Shown piece after piece: positions 4,638 through 32,559 of a stretch of DNA of 64,000 nt. The DNA lies in contig OY759599.1 of assembly GCA_963662465.1 (NCBI GenBank), positions 5,952,001-6,016,000 on the forward strand. Direction: 5' to 3'. Source of the stretch: Desulfatiglandales bacterium (GTDB lineage Bacteria; Desulfobacterota; DSM-4660; Desulfatiglandales; Desulfatiglandaceae). The notes under the pieces are model-generated. The model had not been told where the DNA came from. It saw only the letters and a list, made by a program, of their open reading frames with translations, and did no database searches. The position numbers and the translations under genes are program-made. Every line of letters begins with the position of its first letter. Positions within the stretch are counted from its first letter, which is position 1.

Positions 4638-4667
4638 TCCGATCCTGGCTGAAACGGAGGCAACATC

Positions 4668-8070: not shown

Positions 8071-8127
8071 TTTCCATCGCCACGTTCTCGGTGGCGCGGA
8101 AATTTGTTTAACCTAAACGGCCATCCG

Positions 8128-8603: not shown

Positions 8604-8655
8604 GAGGAAGATAGATTTTTTGGATATCCCGGATGACTATGACATTGATAACTGA
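8458..8655 (+). CDS. Small putative DNA-binding protein
   Basis: GGAGG ribosome-binding site; 50 of 65 residues identical to 2057..2254 by manual alignment. Confidence 0.7.
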   Translation: MRGGKRTGAGRKKKSDHLRRELLTIRLPKWMISQLKNKCEIGYLIEDQLRKIDFLDIPDDYDIDN

Positions 8656-8678
8656 AATCGAGAAAGGAGAAACTGAAT

Positions 8679-9580: not shown

Positions 9581-12500
9581 AAAGGAAAATGCAGGAATTG
9601 GTCCGGGACCTTGGGTTTTTGAGGGAAATCGGGGAGGTCTGCAAGAACCTTCGCTTTCGTTTCATGGCAGGCGTCCAGGAAGCCATCTTTGATACAGATT
9701 CGTTCGAATTTGTTTCTGGCAGCATCAAAAGGGTTAAAGATAGATTTGAACAGGTATTGATTGCCAAGAAGGACGTGAAGTTTGTGGTCTCTCAAAGACT
9801 CCTTCAAAAGACGCCCGAGCAAAAAGCCCGGATTGCAGCCTATTTGGCTCCTTTTTCGAAATTTTATGAGCAGATGAATGAAAGGATGGATGATTATGTG
9901 GAGCTTTTCCCCATTCATCCTGAATATATTGATACATTTGAAAAAATAAGAGCGGTCGAAAAGCGAGAAGTGTTGAGGACCTTTTCCCGTGCCATGAAAG
10001 AGGTCTTAAACGATCCGGTGCCGACCGATTATCCAGGCGTCATTGCTTACGATGGTTATTGGAAACAATTGAAGGAAAACGCTGCCTTTCGATCCATACC
10101 GGATATTCGAACGGTCATGGAATGCAGCGATGTTCTGGAATCAAAAGTGAATCAGTCGTTCAGCAGACCGCCCTATAAAAAGATGGCATTAAGGATTATT
10201 CAGGGCCTTTCCATAAACAGGCTGGCTACAGGGAATATTTATCAGCCGATCGGGCTGACGGCCAGATCGCTCAGGGATGAACTATGCCTCTATCAACCCG
10301 GCATAGAAGAAATGGGGGGTGAACCGAATGAGGATCTTCAAACCCTTGTGGAAACTGTTCTGCGCGAGATTATCAAGACTGTAAACGGACAATTCATTTC
10401 CATGGCCCAGGATTCCGGACAATACTATTTGGATCTCAAAAAGGACGTAGACTATGACGCCTTGATCGAAAAGCGCGCAGAACTTCTCGAAAATGATAAG
10501 CTTGACATGGCTTATTTCGATGCTCTCTCCAGGATACTTGAACGATCCGACATCTATCATCCGGGAACCCACCTGGCATGGGAATATGAGCTCCAATGGT
10601 TGAATCGGAAGTCGGCCCGGATCGGCTATATGTTTTTCGGTACGCCCAATGAACGATCTACCGCCCAGCCGCCCAGGGATTTTTATCTCTATTTCACTCA
10701 GATTTTTGAAGCCCCGTCGTTTAAAGATGAACTTCGATCGGATGAGGCGTTCATCAAATTGACCCATCTGGATGATGAGATCAAGAAACTCATCCGATAC
10801 TATGCTGCCGCTCAAGCACTGGGATCTACTTCTTCCGGCCAGTCGAAAACCATCTATCTCGAAAAAGCAAGCGGGTTTCTCAAGGAAATTGTTCAATGGC
10901 TCAGGAAGAATCTGTTGACGGCTTTAGAACTGAAATACCAGGGAAAATCAAAAGCCATGCTTGAATGGCTAAAAGGGCGTATGAGCCCCTCAGAAATGGA
11001 GCAGAGTACGGTCCGGGATCTGTTAAATACAGCTGCTTCCATTTGCCTTGCAGAATATTTCAAAGAACTGGCGCCCGAATATCCTTCATTTTCTATCAAG
11101 ATCACCGGCGACAACCGTCAGCAGGCAGCAGTGGATGCGCTCCGTGGTATTGGGGGTTCCACCAGGACCAAGCAGGGCACAGCCGTGTTGGATGCTCTTG
11201 AACTGTTTGATGGGGATAACATAGATCCACGGCATTCCAGGTACGCCTTGTTCATTCTGGATTTGTTGAGTAAAAAGGGGGCGGGCCAGGTTCTGAATCG
11301 TTCGGAGCTAATCCAGGATATAATGGGAGTTGAGTACCTGTTGCCGGAACGATTTCGACTGGAACCGGATTGGGTGGTGGCTATACTGGCAGCCCTGGTC
11401 TACGCGGGAGATCTCGTCCTTAATATTCCGGGAAAAGAATTCAGCGCCATCAATATTGCCGCCCTTTCCGCAACGCCTCTCCAGGATCTAATTGATTTCA
11501 AGCATGTCAAAAAGCCCAAAGGTGTGCCCACTGGACCATTGAAAGCACTATTTGAGCTTCTGGGCCTTGCGCCCGGACTTGCCATTGAAATTTCTCAAGG
11601 GAAAAGCGGGCCGGTGGAGCAGCTCCAGACCACCATCGCGGTTTTCGTGGAAAAACTTGTCATGGCCGTTCAGAAGATTCAAACGGGCATCCCATTCTGG
11701 GGGAAGAATCTTCTGTCGGATGATGAGGTCATCTCTTGCCGGAAAAAGATGGAGGAAACCAAGACGTTCCTTGAATCGATCCAGGCCTTCAATACGCCGG
11801 GCAAGATGACAAATTTCAAGTATTCTGAAATCGAAATCCGGAACCATGGTGGAGGGCTTGCCGTACTCAAAGAGGTCAATGCGTTGCAGGAAATCGTCGG
11901 GGATCTCGGAAGCCTCGCCTCCTATCTGGCTCAGGCTGAAGCATATCTTCCGGATACGGATTCATGGATCAGCAAAATGAAAACAACGCGTGATGCCATC
12001 CTTTCCAGCTTTTACGATCCGGAAAAACGCACCAAACCGGAATTCAGGCAGAAAACCCTTCAGCAATTAAATGAATTACAGCAAAGTTACATGGATACTT
12101 ACACATCCATGCACCAGAAAGCCAGGCTGGGTGTGAATGATGACAATCGGAAAAAGGCACTTTCAAGAGATGACAGACTCGAAAAGCTCAAAAAACTAGC
12201 CACCATCGGCACCATGCATGCCAGCCAGCTGGTGGATTTCCAGAACCGCCTGGCCAATCTTACGCCCTGTTACAGCTTTCTAAAAAAAGATCTGAATACC
12301 ACGCCCTTATGTCCTCATTGCACATTTAAACCCTCGCAAGAAAGTATTGTAGTTCCAGTCGACAATCGGATTTCAAAACTGGAAGATGATCTTGACAGGC
12401 TCTACGATGAATGGACCAACACCCTTCTAAACAACCTTGAGGATCCGATTACCCAGGAAAGAATTGACCTGCTAACACCTGAGATGAAAAATCATATTGA

Positions 12501-12738
12501 GGCGTTTCTGAAAACCAGAGTCCTGCCGGATCCGCTCAGCGATGAATTCATCCAGGCAATTCGTGAAGCACTGTCGGATCTCAAGAAAATTACCATAAAG
12601 GTTCCGGATCTGAAGGATGCTCTACTTGCGGGGGGCTCACCATTTAATCCTAATGAAATGAAAACCAGGCTGGATACCTATCTCAGCCGGCTTACCGCAG
12701 GGAAGGACCCCAGCAAGGTCAGAATTGTACTGGAGTAA
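9581..12738 (+). pseudogene. brxC: BrxC, C-terminal fragment
   Basis: In frame with 4668..5223 once the IS is removed; DLGFLREIGE, LFPIHP, PNERSTAQPPRDFY. Confidence 0.9.
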
Positions 12739-18215: not shown

Positions 18216-19498
18216 GTATTGACTATATCTTTACAGACCCCCCCTTCGGCGAAAACATCTATTACGCTGACCTCAACTTTCTCGTAGAAAGCTGGCATAA
18301 TGTTCTTACCAATGCGACAAGTGAAGCCATTGTAGACAAGGCTAAAAAAAAGGGTATGCCAGAATATCAACGTCTAATGCAAAAATGCTTTGAGGAGTAC
18401 TACCGAGTACTCAAACCGGGCAGATGGATGACGGTAGTTTTTCACAATTCCCGAAACGCCGTTTGGAATGCAATCCAGGAGGCCATGCTGGCAGCAGGTT
18501 TCGTGGTGGCGGATGTTCGCACCATGGACAAGAAGCAAGGGTCCTACCGTCAGGTAACCAGTTCTGCCGTTAAACAGGACCTGGTGATTTCCGCCTACAA
18601 GCCCAATGGCGGACTTGAAGAGCGTTTCAAGCTCACAGCGGGAACCGAAGAGGGCGTCTGGGATTTTGTACGTACACACCTGAAACAACTTCCTGTTTTC
18701 GTAATGAAATACGGCCGATGCGAAGTTATTGCCGAACGGCAAAGTTACCTTCTCTATGATCGAATGGTGGCCTTCCATGTGCAGCGGGGCGTCATGGTTC
18801 CAATGTCTGGAGCCGATTTTCACGCAGGGCTTGAGCATCGTTTTCGACCCATCGATGGCATGTATTTTCTGGCGGATCAGGCCGCTGAGTACGAAAAGAA
18901 GCGCATGACGGCCAAAGAGATCTTGCAGTTGGAACTCTTTGTCAAAGATGAGTCTTCCGCAATTCTTTGGCTTCGGCAACAATTCACTCGAAAACCGCAG
19001 ACGTTTCAGGATATCCATTCGCAGTTCATGAGGGAGATCGCGGGGTGGCAGAAGCATGAAAAGGCCCTGGAACTCTCCGAATTGCTGGGGCAGAACTTCC
19101 TTTCCTATGACGGCAAGGGAGAAGTCCCCAGTCAGATTCACAGTTATCTTTCCTCCAACTTCAAAGACTTGCGAAAGCTTGGAAAGGATGATTCCCTGCT
19201 CCAATCCAAAGCCAAAGACAGATGGTATGTGCCTGACCCCAACAAAGCCGGCGACCTGGAAAAGCTACGGGAGCGAGCCCTGTTGAAGGAATTTCATGAA
19301 TATCTGGAATCCAAGGAGAAACGTCTGAAGGTGTTCCGTTTAGAGGCGGTCCGCGCCGGATTCAAGAAAGCCTGGCAGGAAAAGGATTACAACACCATCA
19401 TCGAAGTGGCCAAAAAGATCAAGGAAGAGGTACTCCAGGAAGACCCAAAACTCCTGATGTTTTACGACCAGGCTTTAACCCGAGCGACCCATTCATGA
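18216..19498 (+). pseudogene. pglXI: PglXI, C-terminal part
   Basis: IDYIFTDPPFGENI catalytic motif directly after the IS; RVLKPGRW, EAVRAGFK, LQEDPKLL. Confidence 0.88.
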
Positions 19499-22287
19499 AA
19501 ACAGGCGACTGGGCATATTGCAGCCATCACAGGGAAAACTGTCGCATTGTTGCGATGGAACCGCTTTGGGGAAAGACGTACTTTCGCGTGTGGCTGTCAA
19601 ACAGCGATACAGTGGTTCGGGTCCCGGAAGAGCAGGTTATCTCATTATATGAGGCAGAAAGAGTCGGCCAATCCCATCTCACCTACATCGCATCGGCTGC
19701 GCGTGTCGCAAATGCCCTGGCCCGTGATACGATCCTTGCGCCCATGGAGGCCACCGTCATCCCGCTTCCCCATCAGATCAATGCCCTTAAAAAAGCCGTT
19801 TCCCGCAACCGGATTCGATACCTTTTAGCCGATGAAGTGGGCCTGGGTAAAACCATCGAAGCCGGTTTGATCCTGCGTGAACTCAAATTGAGGGGGCTCG
19901 TCAAACGGGTAATTGTTCTGGCTCCCAAGGGATTGGTCACCCAATGGGTGGCGGAGATGAAAACCCATTTCAATGAAGATTTCACACTTCTGATCCCTGG
20001 AGACTTTTCAGCAATCCGGCAGATCTTTAAATCGGATAATATCTGGATGGAACATCACCAGGTGGTCTGTCCTGTCGATTCCGTGAAACCCATGGAAAAA
20101 CGTAAAGGCTGGAGTCCAAACAGAATCGCCGAATATAATCGGGATCGCTTCGAGGATTTGATCACGGCAGGGTGGGATCTGGTGATCGTGGATGAAGCCC
20201 ATCGGCTGGGGGGCGCAACGGAACAGGTGGCCCGTTATAAATTGGGAAAATCTCTCTCCCTGGCCTCCCCTTACCTACTTTTGCTGACCGCAACCCCGCA
20301 CCAGGGCAAAACTGAGGCATTTCATCGTCTCATCAATCTTTTAGACGACAGGGCTTTCCCTGATACTGCCGGCATAAGCCGGGAGCGGATCACCCCCTAT
20401 GTGATTCGCACGGAAAAAAGACGGGCCATTGACGCAAAGGGTCTTCCCCTGTTTCAGGCCAGGGAAACCAAGCTTATCTCCATTGCATGGGAAGAACGGC
20501 ATGAAAAGCAGAAGCTTCTGTATGAACAGGTCACGGATTATGTGCGCCGCGGATACAACCAGGCGCTCAAAGAAAAAAAGGGGTATATCGGCTTTTTGAT
20601 GATATTGATGCAACGGCTGGTATCCTCCTCAACACGGGCCATCCGCACCACCTTGGAACGCCGTCTTGACGCGTTGACAACATCCCAGGACCAGATCCCG
20701 CTGAACCAGGCATCCCTCTTTGAAGATCTGGAGGATCTGGATGCACAGGAACAACTGGAAACCCTTTTCAACACTCGGATCAGAGCGCTTAAAAACGAAA
20801 AGGCGGAAGTGAAAGCCTTGCTGGAAGAAGCCAGAGCCACAGAGGCAGGGGGAACCGATGCCAAGGCAGAAGCCCTGCTCGAAAATATTTACGCGTTAAT
20901 GCAGAAAGAAGGGGACCCCCATCTCAAGATATTGATTTTCACCGAATTCATTCCCACCCAGGAAATGCTCACGGAATTTCTGGTGGAAAGGGGATTCCCC
21001 TCCACCAGGCTGAACGGATCTATGAGCTTTCAAGAGCGCCAACAAGCCCAAACGGCGTTTGCCGGCGACAAACAAATCCTGATTTCAACGGATGCAGGCG
21101 GTGAGGGGCTGAACCTTCAGTTCTGTCATGTGGTGGTCAACTATGATCTGCCGTGGAACCCCATGCGGATTGAGCAGCGAATCGGGAGGGTGGATCGCAT
21201 CGGCCAGACCCACCCAGTGAAGGCGCTCAATTTTATTTTTGAAGATACCGTTGAATTCCGTGTCCGGGAAGTCCTGGAGGAAAAACTGGAGACCATCCTG
21301 TTGGAATTCGGGGTAGATAAGGCCGGCGATGTTCTGGACTCGGTTCAGGCGGGTGCGCTTTTTGACGACCTGTATATGGATACCCTGATCGAACCGGATG
21401 ATTGGGAAACGAAAATCGAAACCGTCGTGGAACAGGTGCGTCGGTCCGCTTCGGACGTCAGGGAAAGCATGGCCCTGTTTTCCCCCGAAGATCCATTGGA
21501 CCCTTCAGCCGCTGAAAAACTATTGTCTCATCCATTGCCCTTCTGGGTGGAAAAGATGACCCTCAGTTATCTAAATGCCTGCGGCGGCAAGTGCGAAGAA
21601 AGCAGGGGAGATTCCATTAGAACATGGAACCTGACATGGCCTGATGGAGAGACCATGGAAGGGGTGTTTTTTGCTCTGCGGGAAAATATGGCGCACACAA
21701 AGGGAAGATACCTTTCCCTTGAAAACAGCAAAATCCGGGGGCTGAGCATGAACCTGCCCCGTTTTGTCCCCGGCCAACCGATTCCCTACGTGAGTCAGCC
21801 CGGACTTTCTCCGGATATCAGGGGATTCTGGTCTCTGTGGTCCATCTCGCTTGAGACCGCCAAATGGGACCAACGAAAGTTCCTGGCGCTTTTTGTTCAT
21901 GAAGACGGCCGCAATCTGATCCCCACGGCAAACTACCTCTGGGATCTGATGATATCCGAATCCCCAACAATGGTTACGCATCTGGAAGGAGATGAAGCTG
22001 CATCCGTGTTTCATCGACTGCGGACAATCGCTGAAGAAAACGGAAAGCCGCTGTTTGAGGAACTGGTTCGCAGACATCAGGATCGCATGGCCGAGGAAAG
22101 GGAAAAAGCGAAGTATTCTTTTGCATCGAGGAGAAAGCTGATCCATAAATTGGGTCTTCCGGAGGTGAGAGCCTATCGACATTCGAAACTTGAACTGGAA
22201 GCCAGGCAGTTTCATACTGAAATGGAAAAAAGGGAACAGGTTCAACCTGATCTCACCCCATTGATCATCGTGCATGTACAGGGATGA
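19495..22287 (+). CDS. brxHII: BREX-3 SNF2-type helicase BrxHII
   Basis: LADEVGLGKT, DEAH, TATPHQG, GEGLNLQ, QRIGRVDRIG; lies between pglXI and pglZ. Confidence 0.88.
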   Translation: MKTGDWAYCSHHRENCRIVAMEPLWGKTYFRVWLSNSDTVVRVPEEQVISLYEAERVGQSHLTYIASAARVANALARDTILAPMEATVIPLPHQINALKKAVSRNRIRYLLADEVGLGKTIEAGLILRELKLRGLVKRVIVLAPKGLVTQWVAEMKTHFNEDFTLLIPGDFSAIRQIFKSDNIWMEHHQVVCPVDSVKPMEKRKGWSPNRIAEYNRDRFEDLITAGWDLVIVDEAHRLGGATEQVARYKLGKSLSLASPYLLLLTATPHQGKTEAFHRLINLLDDRAFPDTAGISRERITPYVIRTEKRRAIDAKGLPLFQARETKLISIAWEERHEKQKLLYEQVTDYVRRGYNQALKEKKGYIGFLMILMQRLVSSSTRAIRTTLERRLDALTTSQDQIPLNQASLFEDLEDLDAQEQLETLFNTRIRALKNEKAEVKALLEEARATEAGGTDAKAEALLENIYALMQKEGDPHLKILIFTEFIPTQEMLTEFLVERGFPSTRLNGSMSFQERQQAQTAFAGDKQILISTDAGGEGLNLQFCHVVVNYDLPWNPMRIEQRIGRVDRIGQTHPVKALNFIFEDTVEFRVREVLEEKLETILLEFGVDKAGDVLDSVQAGALFDDLYMDTLIEPDDWETKIETVVEQVRRSASDVRESMALFSPEDPLDPSAAEKLLSHPLPFWVEKMTLSYLNACGGKCEESRGDSIRTWNLTWPDGETMEGVFFALRENMAHTKGRYLSLENSKIRGLSMNLPRFVPGQPIPYVSQPGLSPDIRGFWSLWSISLETAKWDQRKFLALFVHEDGRNLIPTANYLWDLMISESPTMVTHLEGDEAASVFHRLRTIAEENGKPLFEELVRRHQDRMAEEREKAKYSFASRRKLIHKLGLPEVRAYRHSKLELEARQFHTEMEKREQVQPDLTPLIIVHVQG

Positions 22288-22291
22288 ACTC

Positions 22292-22615
22292 ATGATGCCC
22301 GACTGGCGAGCAAAAATATTAGAGCATTTCACCCCCCAGATCTCCAAGCTGACCCTGGTGGCTGATCCGGACGGTATTCTGCTCGAAGAAGGCATTCTGG
22401 CCGGCATCAGGACCAGGGGGTTTGAGCTGCTGACCTTTGACGACCACATTGCCTTTCGTTACGCCTACGAATCAAAGTACCGCTCCAGATGGGATCAGGG
22501 GGAACTGACGGAACTGGTGGTGGTTCTCCGGTCCGAGTCCCATGAACTGGGCCGGCTCCCCTACGATATCTTTGAAGCAGGTCGAAAACTCTCTTTCACC
22601 TTGATGGACCTGTTC
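22292..22615 (+). pseudogene. pglZ: BREX-3 phosphatase PglZ, N-terminal fragment
   Basis: LTLVADPDGIL, FRYAYES, LPYD; cut by IS21 element A. Confidence 0.88.
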
Positions 22616-22865
22616 CTTCAACGCTAATCAAAACTGAACCAAGTTTGCTAATGGAAATTGAACCATTGGCTGTCACCGCCAGTGAGTACGGCCCTCAGGT
22701 ATAGCGGACGATGAGGGATCCATAAGTGGCGGCAAAGGAGTCGTTGATGTAGATTTACTTTTCAATAAATTTTTATAAAATCTATTTTCTTTGGATTTGG
22801 TTTTCTTCTTCCAAGACAGAGGCTTGGTTAAGTGGAAATGCGATTTACTTTGTAGAATGGATGGT

Positions 22866-22901
22866 GAAGGCCCGAAGTAGCCGCTTCGGGCCTTCTTTTT
22901 T
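22866..22901 (+). terminator. Intrinsic terminator inside the left end of element A
   Basis: gaaggcccgaag-tagccg-cttcgggccttc followed by a T run. Confidence 0.7.
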
Positions 22902-22989
22902 GACCACCGGATAGAGCCGGAAGCCACACACACGCCAATTTTATATAAGTGTGTTTCCGGCCAATTGCAAGGCCGGAATGATGGGAGAT

Positions 22990-24910
22990 CAGGGTGAATT
23001 TATTCTTCCGAATTATCCAAATAAAATATAAAAGTTGCGCTACATTATGGACAGAAACCCTCGGATGGTGTATATACTGTGACAGGCACCAAACCAATTC
23101 GGGGTTTAAATTCTTGAACGTTAAGCAAGTCCGCATTCAAATAGTCCGCCCGCTTGAAGAACAACGCTTTCAGCATCTGATGCAGTCGCATCATTATTTG
23201 GGCGCTCTTCCCAAGATCAGCGAAACCCTCTGGTATACAGCTAGACTAAATAGTGAGTGGATTGCGCTTGTCAGTTTTTCTGCTCCCGCTTTGAAATGTA
23301 CACCAAGGGACAGCTGGATCGGATGGAATTTTCGCCATCAATACGATCGACTGAAACTGGTAACCAATAACAGTCGTTTTCTAATTTTGCCCGAATGGCA
23401 TATTCCGAATCTCGCATCCCGTATCCTTTCATTATGTCGGAAGCGAATGCAGGCTGATTGGCAGGAGCGTTTCGGGCATCCGGTTGTACTCCTGGAAACC
23501 TTTGTGGACCCAAAGCAATTCCACGGAACCGTATATCGAGCGTCTAATTGGATATATGTTGGTAAAACAAAGGGTTTTCATCGAACTCGCCAAGGCTACA
23601 GCGATAAAGCGGATTCACCGAAAATGGTTTTTCTTAAACCATTGGTTTCCAATGTTCAAGCACTGTTATCCCGACCTGTTCTCAAAAAACCATATCTTAC
23701 AGGAGGTTACAAAATCATGCTCAGTGCGGAACATATGAAATCTCTACCCGACTTTTTTGCTCAAATTCCCGACCCGCGTCGATCCCAGGGACGACGTCAC
23801 AGGCTCTCCACTGTTCTGGCCATTGCCACCGCCGCAACACTGTGCGGAATGCGCGGTTATCTGGCGATATCCGATTGGGTAAATGGTCTTGGACAAAAAG
23901 CCCTTGAGCGTTTCCGTTGCCGATATGAAAATAAGCGCTATGTAGCTCCCAGTCAGTCTACTATCCGTGATGTTCTGGTTCGCGTTGACCCCACAGAACT
24001 CGACAAAGCTCTCCAGCGTTGGAATCTGCTTTACGGTGAACAGGACGAAAGCTTGGCCATCGATGGAAAAACCATGTGTAATGCCATCGATGAACAAGGT
24101 TATCAGACTCACATCATGAGTGCTGTCGGCCATCAAACTAAGACCTGTTACACCCAAAAAAAGTCGGTTCTCTCCCTGTAGAAGGCAAAGACGAACTCAA
24201 GCGAACCAATGAAATCAAAACGGCTGCCCCTTTACTGGACGCGATCGATATCGAAGGCAAAGTCATTTCAGCTGACGCACTGCTAACCCAAAGGACTTTT
24301 GCTAAATATTTGGTCGAGCAACGCAACGCCCATTACCATTTCATCGCCAAAAACAACCAGCCCACATTACTTCAAGACATTTCCCTGTATTTTGAGGGCT
24401 GCAACGATCCTGATTTCATACAACACGATGCTCCCGATCATGGTCGCATCGAAGTGCGCAAAATATGGACGACTACCGAACTTAACCTATACCTGGATTT
24501 CCCGTATGTCGGCCAGGCTTTTATGATCCAGAGAGAAGTTACAAACAAGAAAACCGGTAAATGCACAGTTGAGGTTGCTTACGGCATAACGAGTCAATCA
24601 CCTGATCAGGCGAATCCCGAACGTGTACTTTCTATCAATCGCGGTCACTGGAGCATTGAAAACGAGTGCCATTACATCATCGACTGGAACTACGACGAAG
24701 ATCGAAGCCGAATAAGAACCGGCAATGGTCCTGAAAACATGACCAGGCTGCGTAGATTCGCGGTGGGCGTCATTAAGGCGAAAGGCGTTCGCAGTGTAGC
24801 CCAGAAAATGCGCCAGCTCACGCAGAACGTAAGGGGTGTCTTCGACTATCTCAAGATGACCAAAAATTCAGTGCCCCAAGCGTGATACCTGTTAGAACAA
24901 ATTTACCGTG
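22990..24910 (+). mobile_element. ISAs1-family element (1921 bp) nested in element A
   Basis: Ends cagggtgaatttattct and (reverse complement) cacggtaaatttgttct; 10-bp target duplication gatgggagat at 22980-22989 and 24911-24920. Confidence 0.93.
23114..24885 (+). CDS. ISAs1 transposase with an N-terminal DUF4338/DruA-like domain; needs a -1 frameshift
   Basis: HHYLG, NNSRFLILP and LLETFVD, then DPRR and AIDGKT. A AAA AAG at 24157-24163; the -1 frame gives TNEI, ADALLTQ, HGRIE and RGHWSIEN. Confidence 0.85.
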
Positions 24911-24911
24911 G

Positions 24912-25325
24912 ATGGGAGATGTCCTTTTAAGAGTGGTTCAATGCCGATGTTGTGGTTGCTTTTTTCACGTCTGTCGGTCGTGTTGGCGTGGCCAGGCCTA
25001 TTGTGGGGAACGATGTCGCAGGATACGCCAAAGACAGCTGCACCGGAAAGCTCAGGGGAAATACCGCAATTCGAAAAAAGGGAAAGAGCGCCGTCGTTTG
25101 TACGAAAAAACAAAAAAATCCAAAAAAAATGGACTGAACCCTGGTGATGATAGTTCAACACCTCAAAAAGACTGTGATATTGAACCCAAAAAGCGGTCGG
25201 GGAACCGACCCAGCTGTCTTTTTTGCGGGTCGATCGGGGTTGTTGTGGACCATTTTCCTCGCCGTGCTTATGCAGGGAGGGTTTTTTCAGATGTAACAGG
25301 CTTTGAGAAAACCCCATATCCATGA
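24912..25325 (+). CDS. Cys-rich (putative zinc-binding) basic protein, cargo of element A
   Basis: CRCC..CRSCWRGQAYC..C and CLFCG motifs; the start codon lies within the ISAs1 target duplication. Confidence 0.65.
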   Translation: MGDVLLRVVQCRCCGCFFHVCRSCWRGQAYCGERCRRIRQRQLHRKAQGKYRNSKKGKERRRLYEKTKKSKKNGLNPGDDSSTPQKDCDIEPKKRSGNRPSCLFCGSIGVVVDHFPRRAYAGRVFSDVTGFEKTPYP

Positions 25326-25337
25326 CAGGAGAAAAAA

Positions 25338-25757
25338 ATGATCAAAAAAAGAGTCCTTTTTCCCGAAAGAGTGCGTGTCATCAATGGAAGCTTCGGCTTT
25401 CTGGAGCATCGTTTTTTGAGAAACGGCTTTTGGGAGAGCCTGAATCATCATGAGCTGCTGCTCTACATTTTTCTGGTGTTGGTATCTGACAAAAACGGGC
25501 TCTCTTATTATGGTTACGACAGAATCTGCCGGATTTTAAAGGTGCATTTGGATCAATATATCGATGCCCGCGATGGCTTGTTGGACAAGGATCTGATTGG
25601 GTTTGATGGCCGTCTGTTTCAGGTTCTTTCGCTTCCCAGACGTCCTGTGATTGTGAAACAGGTAAAGGAGATCCGGCAAGGAAATTGGGTCAGTCTTGGA
25701 GAAACCATAGAGGAAATCTTTCGGGAGACTGGGTATGGAATCCATCCGAACCGTTGA
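25338..25757 (+). CDS. Winged-helix (Rep/HTH_36-like) protein, cargo of element A
   Basis: AGGAG ribosome-binding site; LLYIFLVLVSDKNGLSYY..DRIC..L pattern typical of initiator-like wHTH proteins. Confidence 0.65.
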   Translation: MIKKRVLFPERVRVINGSFGFLEHRFLRNGFWESLNHHELLLYIFLVLVSDKNGLSYYGYDRICRILKVHLDQYIDARDGLLDKDLIGFDGRLFQVLSLPRRPVIVKQVKEIRQGNWVSLGETIEEIFRETGYGIHPNR

Positions 25758-26619
25758 TATTCATTTGCTGGAGTTGCGTTACGCTCATTGCCGGATAATG
25801 AATCACCAGGCTTTAAAGCGATTGAGGGATTCCATCGAAACTTACGGGCAGATCGTTCCGGCCCTGGCTATTGAAGAAAAAGACAAACTGATTCTGATTG
25901 ATGGCTACCTGCGTGTTCGAGCGCTTTGTGCTTGTGGAAAGGACCGGATATGTGTCCAATTCTCAAAAGAAAACGAACAAAATGCCATGTTTTCGCTTTT
26001 AACCAAGGCCAATGAACGGCAATGGGAAGTCATTGAGCAGTCTGTTTTACTTCAGGAATTACATCGGCGTTTTGGGTGCAGCCTCTCCCATATTGCAACC
26101 CGAATAGGGCGCGACAAGAGTTTTGTAAAACGGCGGCTGGACCTGGTTGAAGCCCTGCCGGAAAATATTTTGAGAACCGTGATTGCAGGCTCACTTTCAA
26201 CCTGGGCTGCCAGCCGTGTCATGGCGCCGTTGGCGCGCGCCAACGGTGAAGACGCACAAAAACTGTTGGCCCACCTGGAAAAAGAACCTCTATCCACAAG
26301 GGAACTGGCCCGTTTCTACGCACATTACCAGAAAAGCAACCGGTCTGTTCGAGACCACATGCTGGAAAATCCATCCCTTTTCATAAAAGTTCTCGAACAA
26401 AGAACCCAGTCTAAACAAGCCAAAGAAGTTCATGATGGACCGGAAGGCAAATGGTTCAAGGATATTGAAATGGCATATGCGGTTCTCAAACGTCTGGTGA
26501 AAACCGTTTCGCATGTCCATTACCCAAAAAGCGATCAGTTGAAGAAACAAACGCTCAAAACCTGGGTGAAAAAGATAGAAAAACAAGCACTGGAACTCAA
26601 GAAAGCGACCCAATTATGA
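25735..26619 (+). CDS. ParB/RepB/Spo0J-like protein, cargo of element A
   Basis: SIETYGQIVP, LIDGYLRVRAL, HTH IATRIGRDKSFVKRRL; translationally coupled to istA. Confidence 0.85.
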   Translation: MESIRTVDIHLLELRYAHCRIMNHQALKRLRDSIETYGQIVPALAIEEKDKLILIDGYLRVRALCACGKDRICVQFSKENEQNAMFSLLTKANERQWEVIEQSVLLQELHRRFGCSLSHIATRIGRDKSFVKRRLDLVEALPENILRTVIAGSLSTWAASRVMAPLARANGEDAQKLLAHLEKEPLSTRELARFYAHYQKSNRSVRDHMLENPSLFIKVLEQRTQSKQAKEVHDGPEGKWFKDIEMAYAVLKRLVKTVSHVHYPKSDQLKKQTLKTWVKKIEKQALELKKATQL

Positions 26620-27998
26620 TCCGACAATCCAAAAAAGATGCCATTGTGGAATTGAAAAAAACCGGCATGAGTTTGCGCGACATCGCCAAAACCCTGAAGG
26701 CCGGTCGCAATACCGTCACGAAGGTTTTAGATGATCATGACGAAGAGGCGGTACCCCAAAGGAACTCCCGGTATGAAGAACATGTCCCATTGATCCGCGA
26801 GCTTTTCAAGGAATGTAAAGGAAATGCCGTGCGAGTAGCCGAGGAACTGGAAAGCCGCCAACAGATCAAAATCCCTTATCAGAGTCTGACCTGGATTATG
26901 AGAAAGTACGAGATCCGGGAACGTAAAAAAAGACGGGCGGGCCAATACCATTTTAAACCCGGTCAGGAGATGCAGCATGATACGTCACCCCATCTGGTTG
27001 TCATTAATGGGAAAAAAATGTCGACCCAGTGCGCGTCCCTGACCCTGGCCTTTTGCCGAAGGATTTTTATTCAGTATTACCCCTGTTTTACCCGGTTTGA
27101 GTGCAAGGTTTTCCTAAAAAAAGCATTCGAGTTTATGGACGGGGTGTGTTCCCGGTGCATGGTTGACAACACCAATGTTATTGTGGCCGGCGGCACCGGG
27201 CCTGATGCATTGATTGCGCCTGAAATGAAATACTTCGGCGATATGTATGGAACCCGGTTTGAGGCCCATGCTGTAGGAGACGCCAATCGAAGTGCCCGTG
27301 TGGAAAGGCCTTTTCATTTTGTGGAAAACAATTTTCTTCCCGGTAGAACATTTGTTAGCTGGCAGGATTTGAACCGGCAGGCAATCGACTGGTGCCGGAA
27401 TACAAGCGATAAAAAGTTTAAACGGGCTTTAGGGATGACGCCGGATGAGGCCTATGTCATTGAAAAGCCATATCTCATTGATTTACCGGCATACCAGCCG
27501 CCAGTCTATGTGGCAGAACACAGGGTAGCCGATGTTCAGGGATATGTGCACTTGGACACCAACCGCTATTCAGTCCCTGAAGCGCTGATTGGGAACTCCC
27601 TGGAAGTACAGAAACATTGGCTCAAGGTCATCGTTTACGACAAAAACACAAAAGTGGCGGAACATGACCGCATACTGGATAAACGCAACACCCGAACAAC
27701 CCTGCCCGGTCACCATGTTCCCATTCGAAGAAAAAAAGATCCCCGAATCCCTTCAAAAGAAGAACAGCTGTTGACGGGAGAGGATGCCATCCTGGATGAG
27801 TATGTGGCTGAACTGAAGAAAAGAAGTCACGGTCGCGGTGTGGTCAAGTTACGTCGGTTGCTTCATCTGAAACGCACTTATCCCGGGGAACCTTTTTTGA
27901 AAGCCATAACACAGGCGCTTAAATATGGACTTTTTGATTTGTCGCGTCTGGAAAACATTATTCTCGATTATATCGCGGGAGACTTTTTTGATCTATGA
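26616..27998 (+). CDS. istA: IS21 transposase IstA
   Basis: N-terminal HTH plus DDE motifs, 460 aa. Confidence 0.95.
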   Translation: MIRQSKKDAIVELKKTGMSLRDIAKTLKAGRNTVTKVLDDHDEEAVPQRNSRYEEHVPLIRELFKECKGNAVRVAEELESRQQIKIPYQSLTWIMRKYEIRERKKRRAGQYHFKPGQEMQHDTSPHLVVINGKKMSTQCASLTLAFCRRIFIQYYPCFTRFECKVFLKKAFEFMDGVCSRCMVDNTNVIVAGGTGPDALIAPEMKYFGDMYGTRFEAHAVGDANRSARVERPFHFVENNFLPGRTFVSWQDLNRQAIDWCRNTSDKKFKRALGMTPDEAYVIEKPYLIDLPAYQPPVYVAEHRVADVQGYVHLDTNRYSVPEALIGNSLEVQKHWLKVIVYDKNTKVAEHDRILDKRNTRTTLPGHHVPIRRKKDPRIPSKEEQLLTGEDAILDEYVAELKKRSHGRGVVKLRRLLHLKRTYPGEPFLKAITQALKYGLFDLSRLENIILDYIAGDFFDL

Positions 27999-28714
27999 AA
28001 AAGAAAATTGAACAGTTACTCATTGATTTGAAGTTTAAAGGCATGCTGAAGGCTCTCGAAGAACAGTTGGCTTCGGCTGAAAAGAACGGTTTTTCCATTC
28101 ACGAGGTCATCTACAATCTCCTGGCTGAGGAATTACGTTTCCGGCAGGAGCGCAGCATGATCTATCGGGTCCAGATTGCAAAGCTTCCATGGGAATGGAC
28201 CCTCAACTCCTTTCCGTTTGATCTTCAGCCGGGAATACAGAAGAGCCGGATCATGACGTTGTCCGGCCTTGACTTTATCAGCCGAAGAGAAAACATCGTG
28301 TTCCATGGAAAAACCGGCGTCGGCAAAACGGGATTGGCCGTGGGGATCCTTCGTCAAGCCATTATTGCCGGGTACCGGGGGCGTTTTTATAATGTTCAGG
28401 ATTTGCTGGATCAGCTCTATGCGTCTTTGGCAGATCGGTCCACCCCGAAACTCCTCAATGCCCTTTGCAGATATGACCTGCTTCTGCTCGATGAACTGGG
28501 ATACCTGACCCTCAAAAAAGAGCAGATGAACGCCTTTTTTAAACTCATGAAAGATCGCTATGAAGCCGGTCGGTCCACAATTATTACGACCAATCTTCAA
28601 CCTGAACAATGGTATTCGCTGCTTGAACCAAAGGACATGGTCGATGCCTTGCTGGATCGTCCCAACCATCGCTGCATCAACATTCATATTGATGGTCCTT
28701 CCCTCAGAAAATGA
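27995..28714 (+). CDS. istB: IstB ATPase (DRL>DRP variant)
   Basis: Same protein as 1239..1958 except L>P (T>C at 28662). Confidence 0.93.
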   Translation: MKKKIEQLLIDLKFKGMLKALEEQLASAEKNGFSIHEVIYNLLAEELRFRQERSMIYRVQIAKLPWEWTLNSFPFDLQPGIQKSRIMTLSGLDFISRRENIVFHGKTGVGKTGLAVGILRQAIIAGYRGRFYNVQDLLDQLYASLADRSTPKLLNALCRYDLLLLDELGYLTLKKEQMNAFFKLMKDRYEAGRSTIITTNLQPEQWYSLLEPKDMVDALLDRPNHRCINIHIDGPSLRK

Positions 28715-28812
28715 GATGTTCGCCAAAGGGCCGGTTTTGAGGTCTGAATATCACCGGTCTGTTTGAATCTCGTTACACGAATATCAGAAATTACCTTGTC
28801 TTGGAGCTTGAA

Positions 28813-29010
28813 ATGAGAGGTGGAAAACGGGTAGGCGCCGGCCGAAGAAAGAAACCGGAACATTTGAGACGTGAACTGCTCACCATTCGTCTCCCCAAAT
28901 GGATGATTCTACAGCTGAAAAAAAACGGGGAAATTGGATATTTGATTGAGGATCAATTGGCGAAGGGAGGCCTCCTGAATTTACCGGACGACTATGACAT
29001 AGACAAATAG
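28813..29010 (+). CDS. Small putative DNA-binding protein
   Basis: Same protein as 2057..2254. Confidence 0.7.
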   Translation: MRGGKRVGAGRRKKPEHLRRELLTIRLPKWMILQLKKNGEIGYLIEDQLAKGGLLNLPDDYDIDK

Positions 29011-29278
29011 TTCCTCAATAAGCATTGCCCTTAACCGAAAAATCTAATCCCCTCTTCTCTGCCATCACCATATTGATGGTATCCTCATCACTGATTCTTC
29101 AACCAGAACGCTACGTGTCTCACCAGCATTTTTAAAATACCATCTGATATACTCTTTCATGCAACCTCTAACAAATTTACAAGAAAACCCTTCTAAAAGG
29201 AAAAGACCAGTGCGCAATATCTGGTTCCGTTTGGAGTAGCAAAACTGGTTCCATTTTGGTTAGCGCCCAAGCCTGTTC

Positions 29279-30551
29279 TCCAATCTGAGCTATCCGATCC
29301 TGCGTTCTCTCGATATGAGCTGCCTCGATGCGCTCCATGACGCCCTGCAGAAATTTCCCCAACCTAACCTGGCTGACAAAGGGACCTGTGATTTCATCCT
29401 GCGCCATGTGTTTTATATGGCCCCTGAGATCCTCAATACCCCTTCCGAGCTGCTTCATGTCCTTTTGAAAAAGCATTATCAGCGATTGTTGATTCCCCGT
29501 TGTCTGGAGGAGCGATTCATTGAAGTCTTGTCTTTGAATGGAGACTTTCAGGATTGGCCATTGGAAGACATCATCCCGAACCGGGATCTGTTTTTCTCTT
29601 TCCTCCAGGAACGGTGGCCGGTCTATCTGGAGAGCCTCCAAATTCCGGAAGCCGAACGGATCAAAATGCCGATGGAAGCCTATGGTTTGCGTTTAGGAGG
29701 ACCCGCGCATCTTCCCTTCGGCCATGACGACATCCGCATCTATATGGACAATCTGTTCCTGGAAGGGATGCTGAAACCGGTGGAACTCTCAGGGGCTGAA
29801 AAACCGGCACAGCAATGGGTTTCGGTGGGAATCGTCATCAACGAAGCGCAGCGGAAAAGGGAGCAGGCGCAAAAGTTGGTCCGTTTGGTGGAAGCATCCG
29901 TCCCGAACGAGGAATCTTTCCACCAGGAATGGGTTTCATTTTCGCTGAAGTGGGCCAGCCTCGAAACGGCAATAGCAGCAGCCGACAATGCTGTCATAGA
30001 GAAGTTTTCAGAGGATGTAGCCCATTTGCAGACAACCGTGGACAAGACGTTTTCGGCCTGGCTTTTCAACCGATACGCAGGTCTTTACAATCAGCCGCCC
30101 AATCCGCCGGTGATGCTCCACCATATCCCCGGGTTTCTGTCCAATCAGCTGAATCAAACACCTCAAAAGCGCATTGCCTTTATTCTCATCGACGGGTTGT
30201 CCTTGGGACAGTGGTTTGTGCTGAAAGATGTGCTTAGGTGCAGGATTCGTGATATCCAGTTTAATGAGAATGGCGTATTTGCCTGGATCCCGACCATTAC
30301 AACGCTTTCAAGGCAGGCCGCTTTTTCAGGGAAAATCCCTATGTATTTGAGCAACAGCATCCATACTACGGACAAGGAATCGAAGCTGTGGGAACAGTTC
30401 TGGCTGAATCACGGTTTAATAACAAATCAGACAGGTTTTCTGAAAAATCTGGGAGCCGATGCATCATTTGTGCGGATTGAAGAACTCATGGACAGACCGC
30501 ATATAAGAGTCGCCGGCTTGGTGATTAATACAGTGGACAACATTATGCACG
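29279..30551 (+). pseudogene. pglZ: PglZ, middle fragment; C-terminus lost
   Basis: FLQERWP, DNLFLEG, ILIDGLS..QW, FAWIPTITTLSRQA, VDNIMHG, then an IS end. Confidence 0.88.
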
Positions 30552-32559
30552 GCGCATAAGTCTAAATGTTGTGGGGTTGTATAACCCATCAAAATTAAAA
30601 GGCGTTTTCGGTAAACAAGAATGCATTATGAACATTCATAACTTGAATCCAAGGTAAGTCAAATGTTTGGCCGTTGGCTAATTCAAAGGGACTTTTATGA
30701 GCATTTTTTGCGCCAGGTAAAAATGGGACAAAATTCCTGATAGTCGCATGTGCTCGAAAGAAAAGACTTGCCCATTTCTTATCTCGAAAACTCTCAATTT
30801 GTTTTAGTTTACGTTTGATTCCTTTTAAATAATTGTCAACAATGGAGGTTGTTTGTTTTATCCCATTTCTATTTTTATGAGAGGTATAATGAGTGGCATT
30901 TTCTTTTAATTCTACTACCCTCTTTTTTAGTAATGGATGAGAAAATGCATCGTCATCTAATGCCTTAATCTTTACTTCCAAGTTAACTTTAGATGTGGAT
31001 GTTTTCAAAACTTTCTTAAATTTTTTATAAAGCTTGTCCACTTCTTGGTCGGTACATTTTGATTCTTTTTGATATTTTGATAGTGCATCGTAGAAGTTTT
31101 TCAAACAATGACGATGGCAATATCCGACCCAAATGTTATGGAATACGGTCTTGATAGCATTGGTTGAGGCTTTCCACTTATCTTTTGTTACACCAAGGAT
31201 TTTGAAGTCGATTTTTTGCAAAAAATCCTCAAATGAACCGCACAGGTTTTCTTCATCAACATGATCAACATAATCGGAGTGCCATACTAATAAATTTTCA
31301 GGATCGACCATAACTACAGAATAAGTTCTTAAATTTGGTTCTTTTTCAAAGCCCTCATCTTCCTGTAGATATCCTGAGCCTTTCACTCCTGCTCTTGTTA
31401 GTATTGTTGCAGGATGAAGTGTTCCTGCCCATCGATTCCAGTTCAAGATGGTTTGTTTGCTTTTGACACTTTTTTTGCCAATAATTTTAAGGCTTTCGAT
31501 GGCTCCTTGAATGCTCGCATTAAAACGGTACATATTCCGAAATACGTGCCCAATAATCTCTATACCAAAATTCTTTTCCCTTGGGAGAAAGCTGGGAACA
31601 AGAGAGAACTTTTGTTTGCACTTCCGGCATTGTATCATGCGGATTGGGAATGTCTGTTGTTCTCCTCCATTCATTATTGTTTTTCGAGGATTCCCGCGGA
31701 AACCAGATAAAATATATTCTTTAGGTCCAGAACATGTTGAATTATGGCCTGTGTGGTGATCATATTTATCGAGTTTATCTAATACTTCAATGCGAAACTT
31801 CTTACTATCTTTTACGAGAGCATGATAGCTTTCGGTGTTATTATAAGGAAAGATATATGTTTGATTTCCTCGTTTAGAAACAAGGTCTTCCATTTTCTTT
31901 TTTACATTTTCGATTATGGATTTATCAAAAGATTTTAACATCCCTATCTCAAATGCAATACTTATTGTACTATCACGACTTTTTACATTATTCAATTTTT
32001 TAGTAATATTACTTATCATTGAACGAATTGAATAAAAGATTCTAATTTTCTGTCGATCCCGTTGTGTTTTTGGAATGCTTTTTTTCCCTTTTATTGGCTT
32101 ACAAATATCCCATAATTGACTTATTAACCTACCAAGTTCATCAATAAGAGCAGACAATGTTACATAAAAATATTGCAATGATTGAAACATCTCCCTTTCA
32201 TTGATCCATGATCTGATGGCATTAATGCATTTCTCAATTTCAAAGAAAATCTCAGGATACTGTTTTGGATCGTAATAACATTGTCTTGCAAGTCTGTTTT
32301 GAGCTTTGTCCAACATTGTCAAAGCTCTCTTAATATTATTAATCATGTGCAACCTCTCTAATTTAACATAGACTGTTGCACTATGATTATGCACACTTAT
32401 CAAAAAAAGTCCCTAACTTTTTTCCGCTAAGGCGAATTCAGGAAAAAATGTTTGGCCTCACGAAATGCGCTTTGATTAGGATATTGATTCGGAACCGTTT
32501 AACAGATGAAATAATTTCAATATGTTAGAGTAAACCCCACAACATTTAGACTTATGCGC
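30552..32559 (-). mobile_element. AT-rich insertion sequence (Mutator-like; IS256/ISH6-related)
   Basis: Perfect 27-bp IR gcgcataagtctaaatgttgtggggtt at 30552-30578 and 32533-32559; no target duplication. Confidence 0.88.
30595..32346 (-). CDS. Transposase
   Basis: Only long ORF between the IRs; CRKC, QEDE, TKD, CHRH (CxxH) and TTSIVD. Confidence 0.8.
   Translation of the reverse strand: MINNIKRALTMLDKAQNRLARQCYYDPKQYPEIFFEIEKCINAIRSWINEREMFQSLQYFYVTLSALIDELGRLISQLWDICKPIKGKKSIPKTQRDRQKIRIFYSIRSMISNITKKLNNVKSRDSTISIAFEIGMLKSFDKSIIENVKKKMEDLVSKRGNQTYIFPYNNTESYHALVKDSKKFRIEVLDKLDKYDHHTGHNSTCSGPKEYILSGFRGNPRKTIMNGGEQQTFPIRMIQCRKCKQKFSLVPSFLPREKNFGIEIIGHVFRNMYRFNASIQGAIESLKIIGKKSVKSKQTILNWNRWAGTLHPATILTRAGVKGSGYLQEDEGFEKEPNLRTYSVVMVDPENLLVWHSDYVDHVDEENLCGSFEDFLQKIDFKILGVTKDKWKASTNAIKTVFHNIWVGYCHRHCLKNFYDALSKYQKESKCTDQEVDKLYKKFKKVLKTSTSKVNLEVKIKALDDDAFSHPLLKKRVVELKENATHYTSHKNRNGIKQTTSIVDNYLKGIKRKLKQIESFRDKKWASLFFRAHATIRNFVPFLPGAKNAHKSPFELANGQTFDLPWIQVMNVHNAFLFTENAF

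Follow-up and report, generated by a model that had tools for sequence, protein, structure and literature searches.

IS21-family elements with a conserved ParB-like gene upstream of istAB and a candidate parS-like palindrome inside it

The window, a 64,000-nucleotide stretch of contig OY759599.1 from a Desulfatiglandales bacterium, contains an IS21-family element at 22616-29271, which as found occupies 6,656 bp including a nested insertion sequence (IS). Its terminal inverted repeats are imperfect, with 36 of 49 positions matching between 22616-22664 and the reverse complement of 29223-29271. Each end carries two direct repeats of 19-20 bp placed 24 bp apart. In the left inverted repeat (22616..22665, plus strand) these are 19-bp copies at 22623-22641 and 22647-22665, and in the right one (29221..29271, minus strand) 20-bp copies at 29221-29240 and 29245-29264. 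By analogy to IS21 they are presumed to be IstA sites, and the motif GCTAATCAnAAyTGAcCCAnnnnTGCTA is kept at both element ends across the family. The 7-bp target duplication CCTGTTC (left 22609..22615, right 29272..29278) lies within a plus-strand PglZ-domain gene, of which the 5' part is found at 22274..22615 and the rest at 29279-30559. When 22616-29278 is excised in silico, the ORF starting at 22274 joins the PglZ-domain ORF ending at 30559 in one open frame of 540 codons. This gene of a defence-like cluster is knocked out by the element. Inverted repeats, 7-bp duplication, packed operon and the overlap of parB with istA had been reported in a preliminary description of this DNA, and all of them are present.

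The extent of the element given in that description stands as well, but two features inside it had been overlooked, a nested IS and a small ORF after istB. The nested IS is ISAs1-like and 1,921 bp long (22990..24910, plus strand), with DruA/DUF4338, DDE_Tnp_1_assoc and DDE_Tnp_1 domains, and is flanked by its own 10-bp duplication GATGGGAGAT at 22980-22989 and 24911-24920. This insertion does not belong to the IS21 element itself, so that the canonical element is 4,725 bp long and autonomous. Since the nested IS is inserted exactly at the start codon of the Zn-ribbon gene, the operon in this copy is separated from its native upstream region. A promoter-like hexamer pair, TTTACT-16-TAAAAT (22754..22781, plus strand), is a consensus match only, and such sites are no commoner than in shuffled sequence. 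The conserved palindrome or hairpin with 12-bp arms at 22866..22895 (plus strand), GAAGGCCCGAAG-N6-CTTCGGGCCTTC, is kept in every relative whose Zn-ribbon gene is of the same type and shows compensating changes in L066 and L105. Here it is followed by a T-run and is terminator-like; the T-run is absent in L066, L089 and L105.

The transposition genes are istA (26616..27998, plus strand), encoding a DDE transposase of 460 aa, and istB (27995..28714, plus strand), encoding an AAA+ helper of 239 aa. IstA matches Mu-transpos_C_2 (9.6e-17) and an HTH family in Pfam as well as NF033546 (129.4 bits, E 1.9e-37), and its EMQHD motif is invariant in the alignment. IstB matches PF01695 (1e-57) and NF038214 (220.3 bits, over the cut-off of 200). 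Common to this element and canonical IS21 elements (IS21, IS5376) are a DDE transposase with N-terminal HTH and Mu-transposase-type C-terminal domain, an AAA+ helper scoring over the NCBIfam cut-off, overlapping istA and istB, and terminal inverted repeats with repeated sub-sites and 5-8-bp duplications. In contrast to canonical IS21, the element adds three or four conserved genes and has a palindrome in its interior, and IstA scores 129-131 bits against NF033546, below the curated IS21 cut-off of 160. The element measures 4.7 kb, compared with about 2-2.6 kb for canonical members.

The operon is tightly packed. A Zn-ribbon gene is followed after a 12-nt gap by a winged-helix (wHTH) gene, which overlaps the ParB-like gene by 23 nt; the ParB-like gene and istA share a 4-nt ATGA overlap, and istA and istB again overlap by 4 nt. 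The Zn-ribbon protein (24912..25325, plus strand, 137 aa) has the pattern CxxC-x6-CxxC-x6-C-x3-C, a basic helical hairpin and a C-terminal CxxC, and matched no Pfam or NCBIfam family. Of this Zn-ribbon there are two types, which hhalign finds to be related (probability 90.7%, E 1.3e-6). After istB follows the small conserved ORF of 65 aa (28813..29010, plus strand), which reads MRGGKRVGAGRRKK...LTIRLPKW..., matched no family in profile searches and, as a guess from its sequence, may encode a DNA-binding product. The extra genes are under purifying selection, with dN/dS at 0.20-0.48 for the Zn-ribbon gene, at 0.08 for the small ORF relative to L050, and at 0.05-0.48 across all six element genes.

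The wHTH gene (25338..25757, plus strand, 139 aa) is an optional module, found in only 11 of 80 relatives. Its product reaches 23.3 bits for HTH_36, under the cut-off of 25, and has no NCBIfam match. The best Foldseek E-value is 0.06, common to Crp/Fnr and MarR, and paralogues in the host genome immediately precede tyrosine-recombinase genes. The preliminary description had called this protein Rep-like. We rejected a Rep or RepA_N initiator: there is neither a family-level match nor an iteron or repeat array, and the paralogues stand beside tyrosine recombinases. The protein is a generic winged helix.

The ParB-like gene (25735..26619, plus strand) encodes 294 aa with a ParB N-terminal domain, a ParB HTH (HTH_ParB, E 1.2e-6) and a family-specific C-terminal part, the last 90 residues of which fit none of the known dimerisation domains. 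Solved ParB and Noc chains align to the family profile over 175 residues of the N-terminal and HTH domains (E 3.5e-16), and KorB does so weakly (5e-4); TIGR00180 is matched at 44 bits, under the cut-off of 58.45. In place of the nucleotide-binding box GERRxRA the protein reads GYLRVRA. GYLR replaces GERR, with loss of the glutamate and the first arginine; the G remains, as do the second and third arginines. The GxxR motif (G57, R60) is invariant in the family, but this altered box makes the clamp chemistry of the protein uncertain. Inside the gene, at 26227..26246, lies a perfect 20-bp palindrome, CCGTTGGCGCGCGCCAACGG, with the 16-bp core GTTGGCGCGCGCCAAC.

A ParB-like protein with a palindrome in its own gene has the look of a centromere module, and the preliminary description had read the cargo as plasmid-like, replication-type functions that maintain, partition or replicate a circular or excised intermediate. 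In the fold search, the wHTH protein does have RepA_N initiators among its weak hits (E 0.06-0.12). Several IS21 lineages had been said to carry nucleic-acid-handling accessory genes, which is seen in other elements of the host genome, with a Toprim fusion in element B and a DnaG-type zinc ribbon in element C. Against such a role, profile searches found no ParA-type ATPase among the six ORFs of the element, nor were an initiator family or iterons found in it, and tblastn of the ParB-like protein gave no match in 72,556 plasmid records. The wHTH protein is not Rep-like, because it is optional and has its paralogues next to tyrosine recombinases. The reading as a plasmid-type cassette for replication or partition is not supported, and we regard maintenance of a circle as quite improbable.

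The host genome of 8.16 Mb contains 25 full-length copies of the element with 99.5-100% identity, and a copy number by depth of about 26 indicates that the element is highly active there. Target duplications of 5-8 bp flank 19 of the 25 copies. All 25 carry the extra genes, including the first copy (genome 5949791-5954515), which reaches into the window at 1-2515 and has its cargo upstream of the window. The same linkage is found outside this genome. Among close IstA homologues, the cargo is present in 16 of the 18 IstA-recruited loci of at least 2.5 kb, each time with the ParB-like gene immediately before istA; among them is a relative with only 50% IstA and 35% ParB identity, and the remaining two loci are without usable upstream sequence. 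With these counts, the earlier claim that the extra genes are integral to the element and linked to istAB is supported, and neither of the two refuting outcomes named in the preliminary description, a lack of cargo in most close IstA homologues or in the first copy, was seen. In metagenomes, istA follows the ParB-like gene at 62 of 64 loci with at least 400 nt downstream, and a Zn-ribbon gene precedes it at 71 of 75 loci with at least 550 nt upstream. Judged from all of these loci, the extra genes have been co-inherited with istAB over long evolutionary distances. They define a large sub-family with the operon Zn-ribbon, optional winged helix, ParB-like, IstA, IstB and optional small ORF.

This conservation across the sub-family argues against casual passengers. 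The extra genes could nevertheless be true passengers that act on the host or on competitors, silencing neighbours or countering defence, with indirect benefit to the element. Suggestive of this are the positions of the element copy and of element B, each inside genes of one defence-like cluster (SNF2 helicase, PglZ gene, large P-loop gene), as well as the modularity of the accessory genes, which are swapped between IS21 lineages. However, gene order is strict, with frames overlapping or coupled with istA, and in one cluster of 13 sequences ParB and IstA are fused into a protein of 763 aa. ParB and IstA identities to the query rise together (Spearman 0.70, n = 47, kin not being independent); the two have diverged together. 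Together with the cis site within the element, these features fit a role in transposition better than passengers, which we consider very unlikely.

No other DNA of the element is as conserved as the palindrome. Its 11-mers are common to up to 35 of 44 loci, against 20 of 44 for the next-best stretch. In a set of 45 ParB genes less than 85% identical to each other, its codons are fixed at P165 (CCG, 43/45), L166 (TTG, 45/45), R168 (CGC, 45/45) and N170 (AAC, 41/45), compared with a commonest-codon share of only 0.22-0.78 at the 53 other well-conserved columns listed, counts that may be biased by the recruitment of most metagenome loci through a degenerate pattern covering the peptide motif of the palindrome. 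Loci recruited through IstA also contain the palindrome. Its synonymous sites are frozen. The variants, G5 to T and C12 to T, are asymmetrical and protein-changing. There is one copy per element, about 1.7 kb into the 4.7 kb. L146 and L149, relatives without ParB, lack the palindrome, and in L134, which has Zn-ribbon, IstA and a ParB of 38% identity, no match was found within 3 mismatches. Because of the fixed codons and the conservation at the DNA level, the palindrome is probably a parS-like site. It is a new observation.

From this co-occurrence, we propose that a dimer of the ParB-like protein binds the palindrome via its HTH, like ParB on parS, and that the ParB-like and Zn-ribbon proteins would then act in cis on the element and control transposition. 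On balance we think it somewhat more likely than not that an element-encoded module of ParB, site and Zn-ribbon controls transposition or its expression. Against this reading, the related IS21 elements L146 and L149 have Zn-ribbon and wHTH but no ParB, so that the wider group can do without it. One option is that the module sets the expression of istAB, as ParB-family KorB, BisD and VirB act at promoters. Alternatively, the palindrome could have an architectural role inside the element and work like an enhancer for the IstA/IstB transpososome. In phage Mu, with MuA, MuB and repressor, an internal cis site (enhancer/operator) helps transposition. More tentatively, a ParB-type clamp switched by nucleotide may load at the palindrome, which would serve as a third, internal site, either enhancer-like or for cis-immunity against IstB; we consider this doubtful. 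If true, the sub-family would join a switch of the ParB type to a DDE transposase under AAA+ control.

As an analogy only, phage Mu and Tn7/Tn5053 combine a DDE transposase and an AAA+ regulator with a third DNA-binding component, in Tn7/Tn5053 TniQ/TnsD. A ParB-like protein loaded at the palindrome could spread and exclude IstB, which would prevent self-insertion, or could steer insertions as a third, target-selecting component comparable to TniQ/TnsD in Tn7-like elements, of which we take the Zn-ribbon and HTH make-up to be reminiscent. With the palindrome at 1.7 of 4.7 kb, both ends are within sliding range, and about 260 bp separate a solo chromosomal copy of the palindrome from an IRR-like terminus. 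Clamps of the ParB family spread from one site, as described for BisD (10.1101/2024.09.16.613209). The 19 target duplications, however, are without common sequence, and other ISs did enter 4 of the 25 copies. We regard cis-immunity or target choice as unlikely.

For a module that controls transposition or its expression, the nearest parallels are ParB proteins of other systems. ParB/Spo0J, Noc and KorB share the N-terminal ParB domain with HTH, the candidate site here is a 16-bp palindrome as for parS-type sites, and parS of B. subtilis likewise lies inside spo0J itself. In contrast to these proteins, the one described here has no ParA partner, carries the GYLRVRA box and is encoded by a gene translationally coupled to a transposase gene. 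Compared at the level of the ParB domain only, BisD of ICEclc is similar: it is (bioRxiv 10.1101/2024.09.16.613209) a ParB-like clamp that needs the GxxR motif for NTP binding and loads at palindromes inside genes. BisD/BisC and the module here share a ParB-like protein from a mobile element that works without ParA, GxxR, palindromes in coding sequence and a small partner. In contrast to the protein of the 4.7-kb IS, BisD has its own activator domain and turns on conjugation genes across about 50 kb of an ICE.

IS21 is a structural model for the control of a DDE transposase by an AAA+ ATPase, and ParB proteins are a model for CTP-switched DNA clamps. The sub-family hard-wires a ParB-type system to the IS21 machinery. 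Two papers treat the transposition mechanism of IS21 (PMC10122671, PMC11208146), and the full-text literature searched gave no description of ParB-carrying IS21 elements. The cis site is defined precisely enough for synonymous recoding and would offer an experimental handle on an extra layer of transposition control. Many genes that metagenome annotations call 'ParB/partition protein' belong to insertion sequences. The ParB profile retrieves 495 representative clusters at E <= 1e-30, mostly on contigs of 2-5 kb from sediment and aquatic metagenomes.

The IS21-family element at 22616–29271 of the window starts CTTCAACGCTAATC... and finishes ...GGTTAGCGCCCAAG. Its inverted repeats were missed by the automated repeat search and spotted by eye; a script check afterwards verified that 36 of 49 positions are identical between the two ends. 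Each end contains two direct repeats of 19–20 bp, spaced 24 bp, and the 7-bp duplication CCTGTTC is present on both flanks. In-silico excision of 22616–29278 results in an open frame of 540 codons, which joins a 117-codon ORF from 22274 to a PglZ-domain ORF ending at 30559. The matching ends, the duplication and the restored frame therefore bear out the element, inverted repeats and target duplication reported in the preliminary description. The terminal motif GCTAATCAnAAyTGAcCCAnnnnTGCTA is present at both ends family-wide, which gives element sizes of 4.2–4.7 kb. The number of sites found in a promoter scan of the element is not above that in shuffled sequences. At 30559, where the PglZ-domain frame ends, just 129 of 179 domain positions are matched, and the adjoining 602-aa minus-strand ORF has a weak match to DUF6431; the region 30559–32403 is probably a second insertion in the PglZ-domain gene. 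Around the element (19495–22287 and flanks) lie genes for an SNF2-type helicase, the PglZ-domain protein and a large P-loop protein, the last hit by another IS21 element; the cluster seems to be a defence-like island that several insertion sequences have inactivated.

The element encodes a Zn-ribbon protein (24912–25325, 137 aa), a winged-helix (wHTH) protein (25338–25757, 139 aa), a ParB-like protein (25735–26619, 294 aa), IstA (26616–27998, 460 aa), IstB (27995–28714, 239 aa) and a small ORF (28813–29010, 65 aa). From the Zn-ribbon gene through istB, intergenic spacings are +12, −23, −4 and −4 nt. IstB clearly belongs to its family (PF01695 at 1e-57; NF038214 with 220 bits versus a cut-off of 200). 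Against the IS21 model IstA reaches an E value of 1.9e-37, yet its 129 bits lie under the curated cut-off of 160. The ParB-like protein matches HTH_ParB at 1.2e-6 and the wHTH protein has a sub-threshold match to HTH_36, while no family was found in Pfam or NCBIfam for the Zn-ribbon protein and the small ORF. With dN/dS values of 0.05–0.48, all six genes are, as judged by sequence comparison, under purifying selection. In two comparisons, dS of the Zn-ribbon gene and the small ORF is far above that of their neighbours, indicating module exchange between related elements. A 239-aa minus-strand ORF, antisense to the Zn-ribbon gene in canonical copies, was rejected as low-complexity; the plus-strand Zn-ribbon frame is preferred because of its conserved cysteines, its homologues and its dN/dS below 0.5.

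Nested in the element is a separate ISAs1-like IS of 1,921 bp (22990–24910), which encodes DruA/DUF4338, DDE_Tnp_1_assoc and DDE_Tnp_1 and is bounded by inverted repeats of its own, with a 10-bp duplication, GATGGGAGAT. Its insertion point coincides with the Zn-ribbon start codon, so that the operon of the window copy is severed from its native left end. The transposase of the nested IS lies in two frames, split at a run of seven A near 24160. This frameshift may be programmed, since ten further full-length copies genome-wide are near-identical.

Within the 8.16-Mb single-contig genome, element positions 1–374 and 2296–6656 are the only ones that recur together in a DNA search, and the canonical element is 4,725 bp long. 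Of its 25 full copies, 21 are uninterrupted (two carry a 19-bp insertion) and 4, including that in the window, are interrupted; fragments exist besides. Identity across copies is 99.5–100%. Direct duplications are found at 19 of the 25 copies (5 bp once, 6 bp once, 7 bp nine times, 8 bp eight times) and are missing at six. Contig depth in the best-matching sequencing run, about 1,116–1,143 for the element versus 42 for the flanking contig, corresponds to about 26 copies. The assignment of the accessory genes to the element as its cargo was checked in copy 1, a second copy at genome positions 5949791–5954515 whose final 2,515 bp form the start of the window: it is a complete 4,725-bp element, cargo included. 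A related variant divided into 30 bins is covered in 28 and 29 of them by contigs of two metatranscriptome libraries, a coverage we do not count as expression because DNA carry-over is possible. The right end is duplicated in tandem in one copy of Delta proteobacterium NaphS2 (L017, 5389–6433): three right-end termini follow one another at 522-bp spacing, and a repeated C-terminal coding part of IstB accompanies each.

The cargo was also checked in close homologues of IstA, in which it might be missing. With IstA as query, 41 loci were recovered from 185,579 species genomes; 18 of them are at least 2.5 kb long. In 16 of these 18 the ParB-like gene lies immediately upstream of istA; of the two others, one has 42 nt upstream and one has a different IS21 inserted at the istA 5' end. 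The 16 include many copies in NaphS2 (identities of 86% for IstA, 84% for ParB, 73% for wHTH and 46% for the Zn-ribbon protein), several MAG contigs and a 3.7-kb contig labelled Thermoplasmatales (IstA 50% and ParB 35% identical, Zn-ribbon frame upstream). Relatives of the ParB-like protein number 984 at E ≤ 0.001 among 4,019 candidates. Among the 120 matches listed their contigs are mostly 1–5 kb, a size that collapsed repeats would give. A ParB profile search of 1.84 billion representatives returned 495 clusters at E ≤ 1e-30.

Metagenome loci were fished by a degenerate pattern over a peptide encoded by a palindrome in the ParB-like gene, and 80 loci were kept out of 511 confirmed. istA follows within 300 nt in 62 of the 64 loci with at least 400 nt downstream (exceptions L093 and L111). 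Where the upstream sequence is 550 nt or longer (75 loci), an HMM detects a Zn-ribbon frame in 71 (exceptions L062, L064, L101 and L106). Sixty of these 71 frames are of one type, 10 are of the type in the window and 1 matches both; the N-terminal ribbon is common to the two types (hhalign probability 90.7%, E 1.3e-6, 53 columns). The wHTH gene, present in only 11 of 80 loci and alongside either ribbon type, is an optional module. A natural in-frame fusion of the ParB-like part with IstA, 763 aa long, is encoded by a single cluster of 13 sequences. We conclude that the Zn-ribbon and ParB-like genes are linked with istAB over the long term. Strong ParB-type matches (E < 1e-30) occur in 5 of 301 phylum-sample genomes, the window genome included, and in none of 4 same-family genomes, a patchy distribution as expected of an IS. 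We consider it improbable that the accessory genes are passengers with host-directed functions.

A profile of 31 ParB-like family members aligns with chromosomal ParB and Noc chains of known structure over the N-terminal and HTH domains at an E value of 3.5e-16, and weakly with KorB. GYLRVRA replaces the GERRxRA box in this family; G57 and R60 are invariant, and the first arginine has been lost along with the glutamate. A precedent is BisD of ICEclc, a ParB-like clamp without ParA (bioRxiv 10.1101/2024.09.16.613209). According to this preprint, binding of CTP or ATP requires the GxxR arginine and the loading sites are palindromes inside ICE genes.

The sole long perfect palindrome of the canonical element, CCGTTGGCGCGCGCCAACGG, lies within the ParB-like gene at 26227–26246 and codes for the invariant P-L-A-R-A-N-G; the candidate ParB-binding DNA is GTTGGCGCGCGCCAAC. 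Codons were compared over 45 family ParB-like genes with proteins under 85% identical. The motif codons are CCG in 43/45, TTG in 45/45, CGC in 45/45 and AAC in 41/45. Codon choice is looser at the 53 further columns listed whose amino-acid conservation reaches 90%, where the leading codon takes a share of just 0.22–0.78. Elsewhere in the gene TTG is a minority leucine codon. Palindrome 11-mers are common to up to 35 of 44 non-redundant loci, above every other stretch including the inverted repeats; the runner-up, a stretch in the IstA catalytic motif, reaches 20 of 44. The peptide pattern used to fish the metagenome loci could bias the codon counts; loci fished through IstA contain the palindrome as well. 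It was not found in the ParB-less IS21 relatives L146 and L149, nor in a distant IS21 lineage of this genome, element C. Two other relatives carry it with one mismatch; in a further relative, L134, whose ParB is 38% identical, nothing matches it even when three mismatches are allowed. The frequent variants G5 to T and C12 to T are asymmetrical and protein-changing. The palindrome is under nucleotide-level constraint, and probably represents a parS-like site embedded in the ParB-like gene. Its 16-bp core has 26 exact genomic copies, one in each of the 25 elements and a solo copy in the intergenic region G000:C1:3732981-3733256, outside the window. About 260 bp beyond the solo copy is a terminus closely resembling the element right end (GTGGTTCCGCTTTGGTTAGCGCCCAAG), with no left end found within 4 kb; this locus may be a remnant or miniature derivative.

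A dimer of the ParB-like protein would bind the palindrome and, together with the Zn-ribbon protein, would act in cis on the element, either by setting istAB expression or by aiding assembly of the IstA/IstB complex on both ends. We lean, somewhat beyond an even chance, towards such control of transposition in cis. A cis-acting module could also serve cis-immunity or target choice, which we consider unlikely. The preliminary description had proposed partition or replication of a circular intermediate. A tblastn search of a plasmid collection (72,556 records) with the ParB-like protein gave no match, and no right-end-to-left-end junction is present among the assembled contigs of public runs, which are uninformative on circles. 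We give this proposal little credence. The most useful new entry point is the frozen palindrome. In a full-text literature search, with ISfinder and TnCentral outside its scope, no account of a ParB-like gene in an IS21 element turned up; passages in PMC3281130, PMC7371123 and PMC12486865 speak of extra ORFs or of accessory factors in generic terms only.

The wHTH protein had been called Rep-like, a label not supported by its model or its paralogues. Its model (pLDDT 70.6) is a generic winged helix with a top Foldseek E value of 0.06 and equally weak matches to Crp/Fnr, MarR and RepA_N-type initiators. Two paralogues in the same genome, 58–63% identical, are located directly upstream of tyrosine-recombinase genes (Phage_integrase 1.7e-25). 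Because of the generic fold and these neighbours, it is better described as a mobile-element DNA-binding accessory protein. The paralogues (L131 1642–2028, minus strand; L132 2164–2559, plus strand) are flanked by a cysteine-rich ORF of 203–216 aa and one or two tyrosine-recombinase genes, and these loci probably represent a further type of mobile element. In the Zn-ribbon model (pLDDT 72.2), a long basic helical hairpin comes after the ribbon; the model has no significant structural match (top Foldseek hit YacG, E 1.4). Neither model has a PDB match at E ≤ 0.001 by Foldseek, and for both the ESM Atlas gave hypothetical-protein clusters only; no credible match came from PDB sequence searches with the Zn-ribbon profile or the small ORF. 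At the left end, a conserved palindrome with 12-bp arms (22866–22895) is kept in all relatives with the Zn-ribbon type of the window, with compensating changes in two and a following T-run in some; it could act as a DNA site or as an RNA hairpin.

IS21-type IstA is found in 10 of 41 same-order genomes. At L146 and L149, loci of other genomes of the order, the gene order is Zn-ribbon, wHTH, IstA, with IstA scores over the curated IS21 cut-off and no ParB-like gene; the remaining loci from other genomes show no accessory genes in 1.5-kb flanks. Fifteen further homologues of the small ORF, 69–81% identical, adjoin other IS21 elements of this genome, whose IstA is just 25–31% identical (IstA/IstB overall 25–35%). 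This far better conservation across IS21 lineages suggests a portable module exchanged among elements. Element B (5365–9452), an IS21 lineage with three copies in the genome, encodes a 901-aa IstA with a C-terminal Toprim fusion, two tandem small-ORF paralogues (8199–8387 and 8437–8655) and IstB (8679–9452). The large P-loop gene (4668–5264 and 9589–12738) is apparently split by it. Element C, a third lineage with two copies (L130, G000:C1:8093500-8100500, 1170–5613), has the order Zn-ribbon-like frame, distant ParB-like gene, IstA, IstB, DnaG-type CHC2 zinc ribbon and small-ORF homologue, with identities of 22% for the ParB-like protein, 31% for IstA, 35% for IstB and 79% for the small ORF. 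The accessory genes thus form a modular set that recurs with IstA/IstB.
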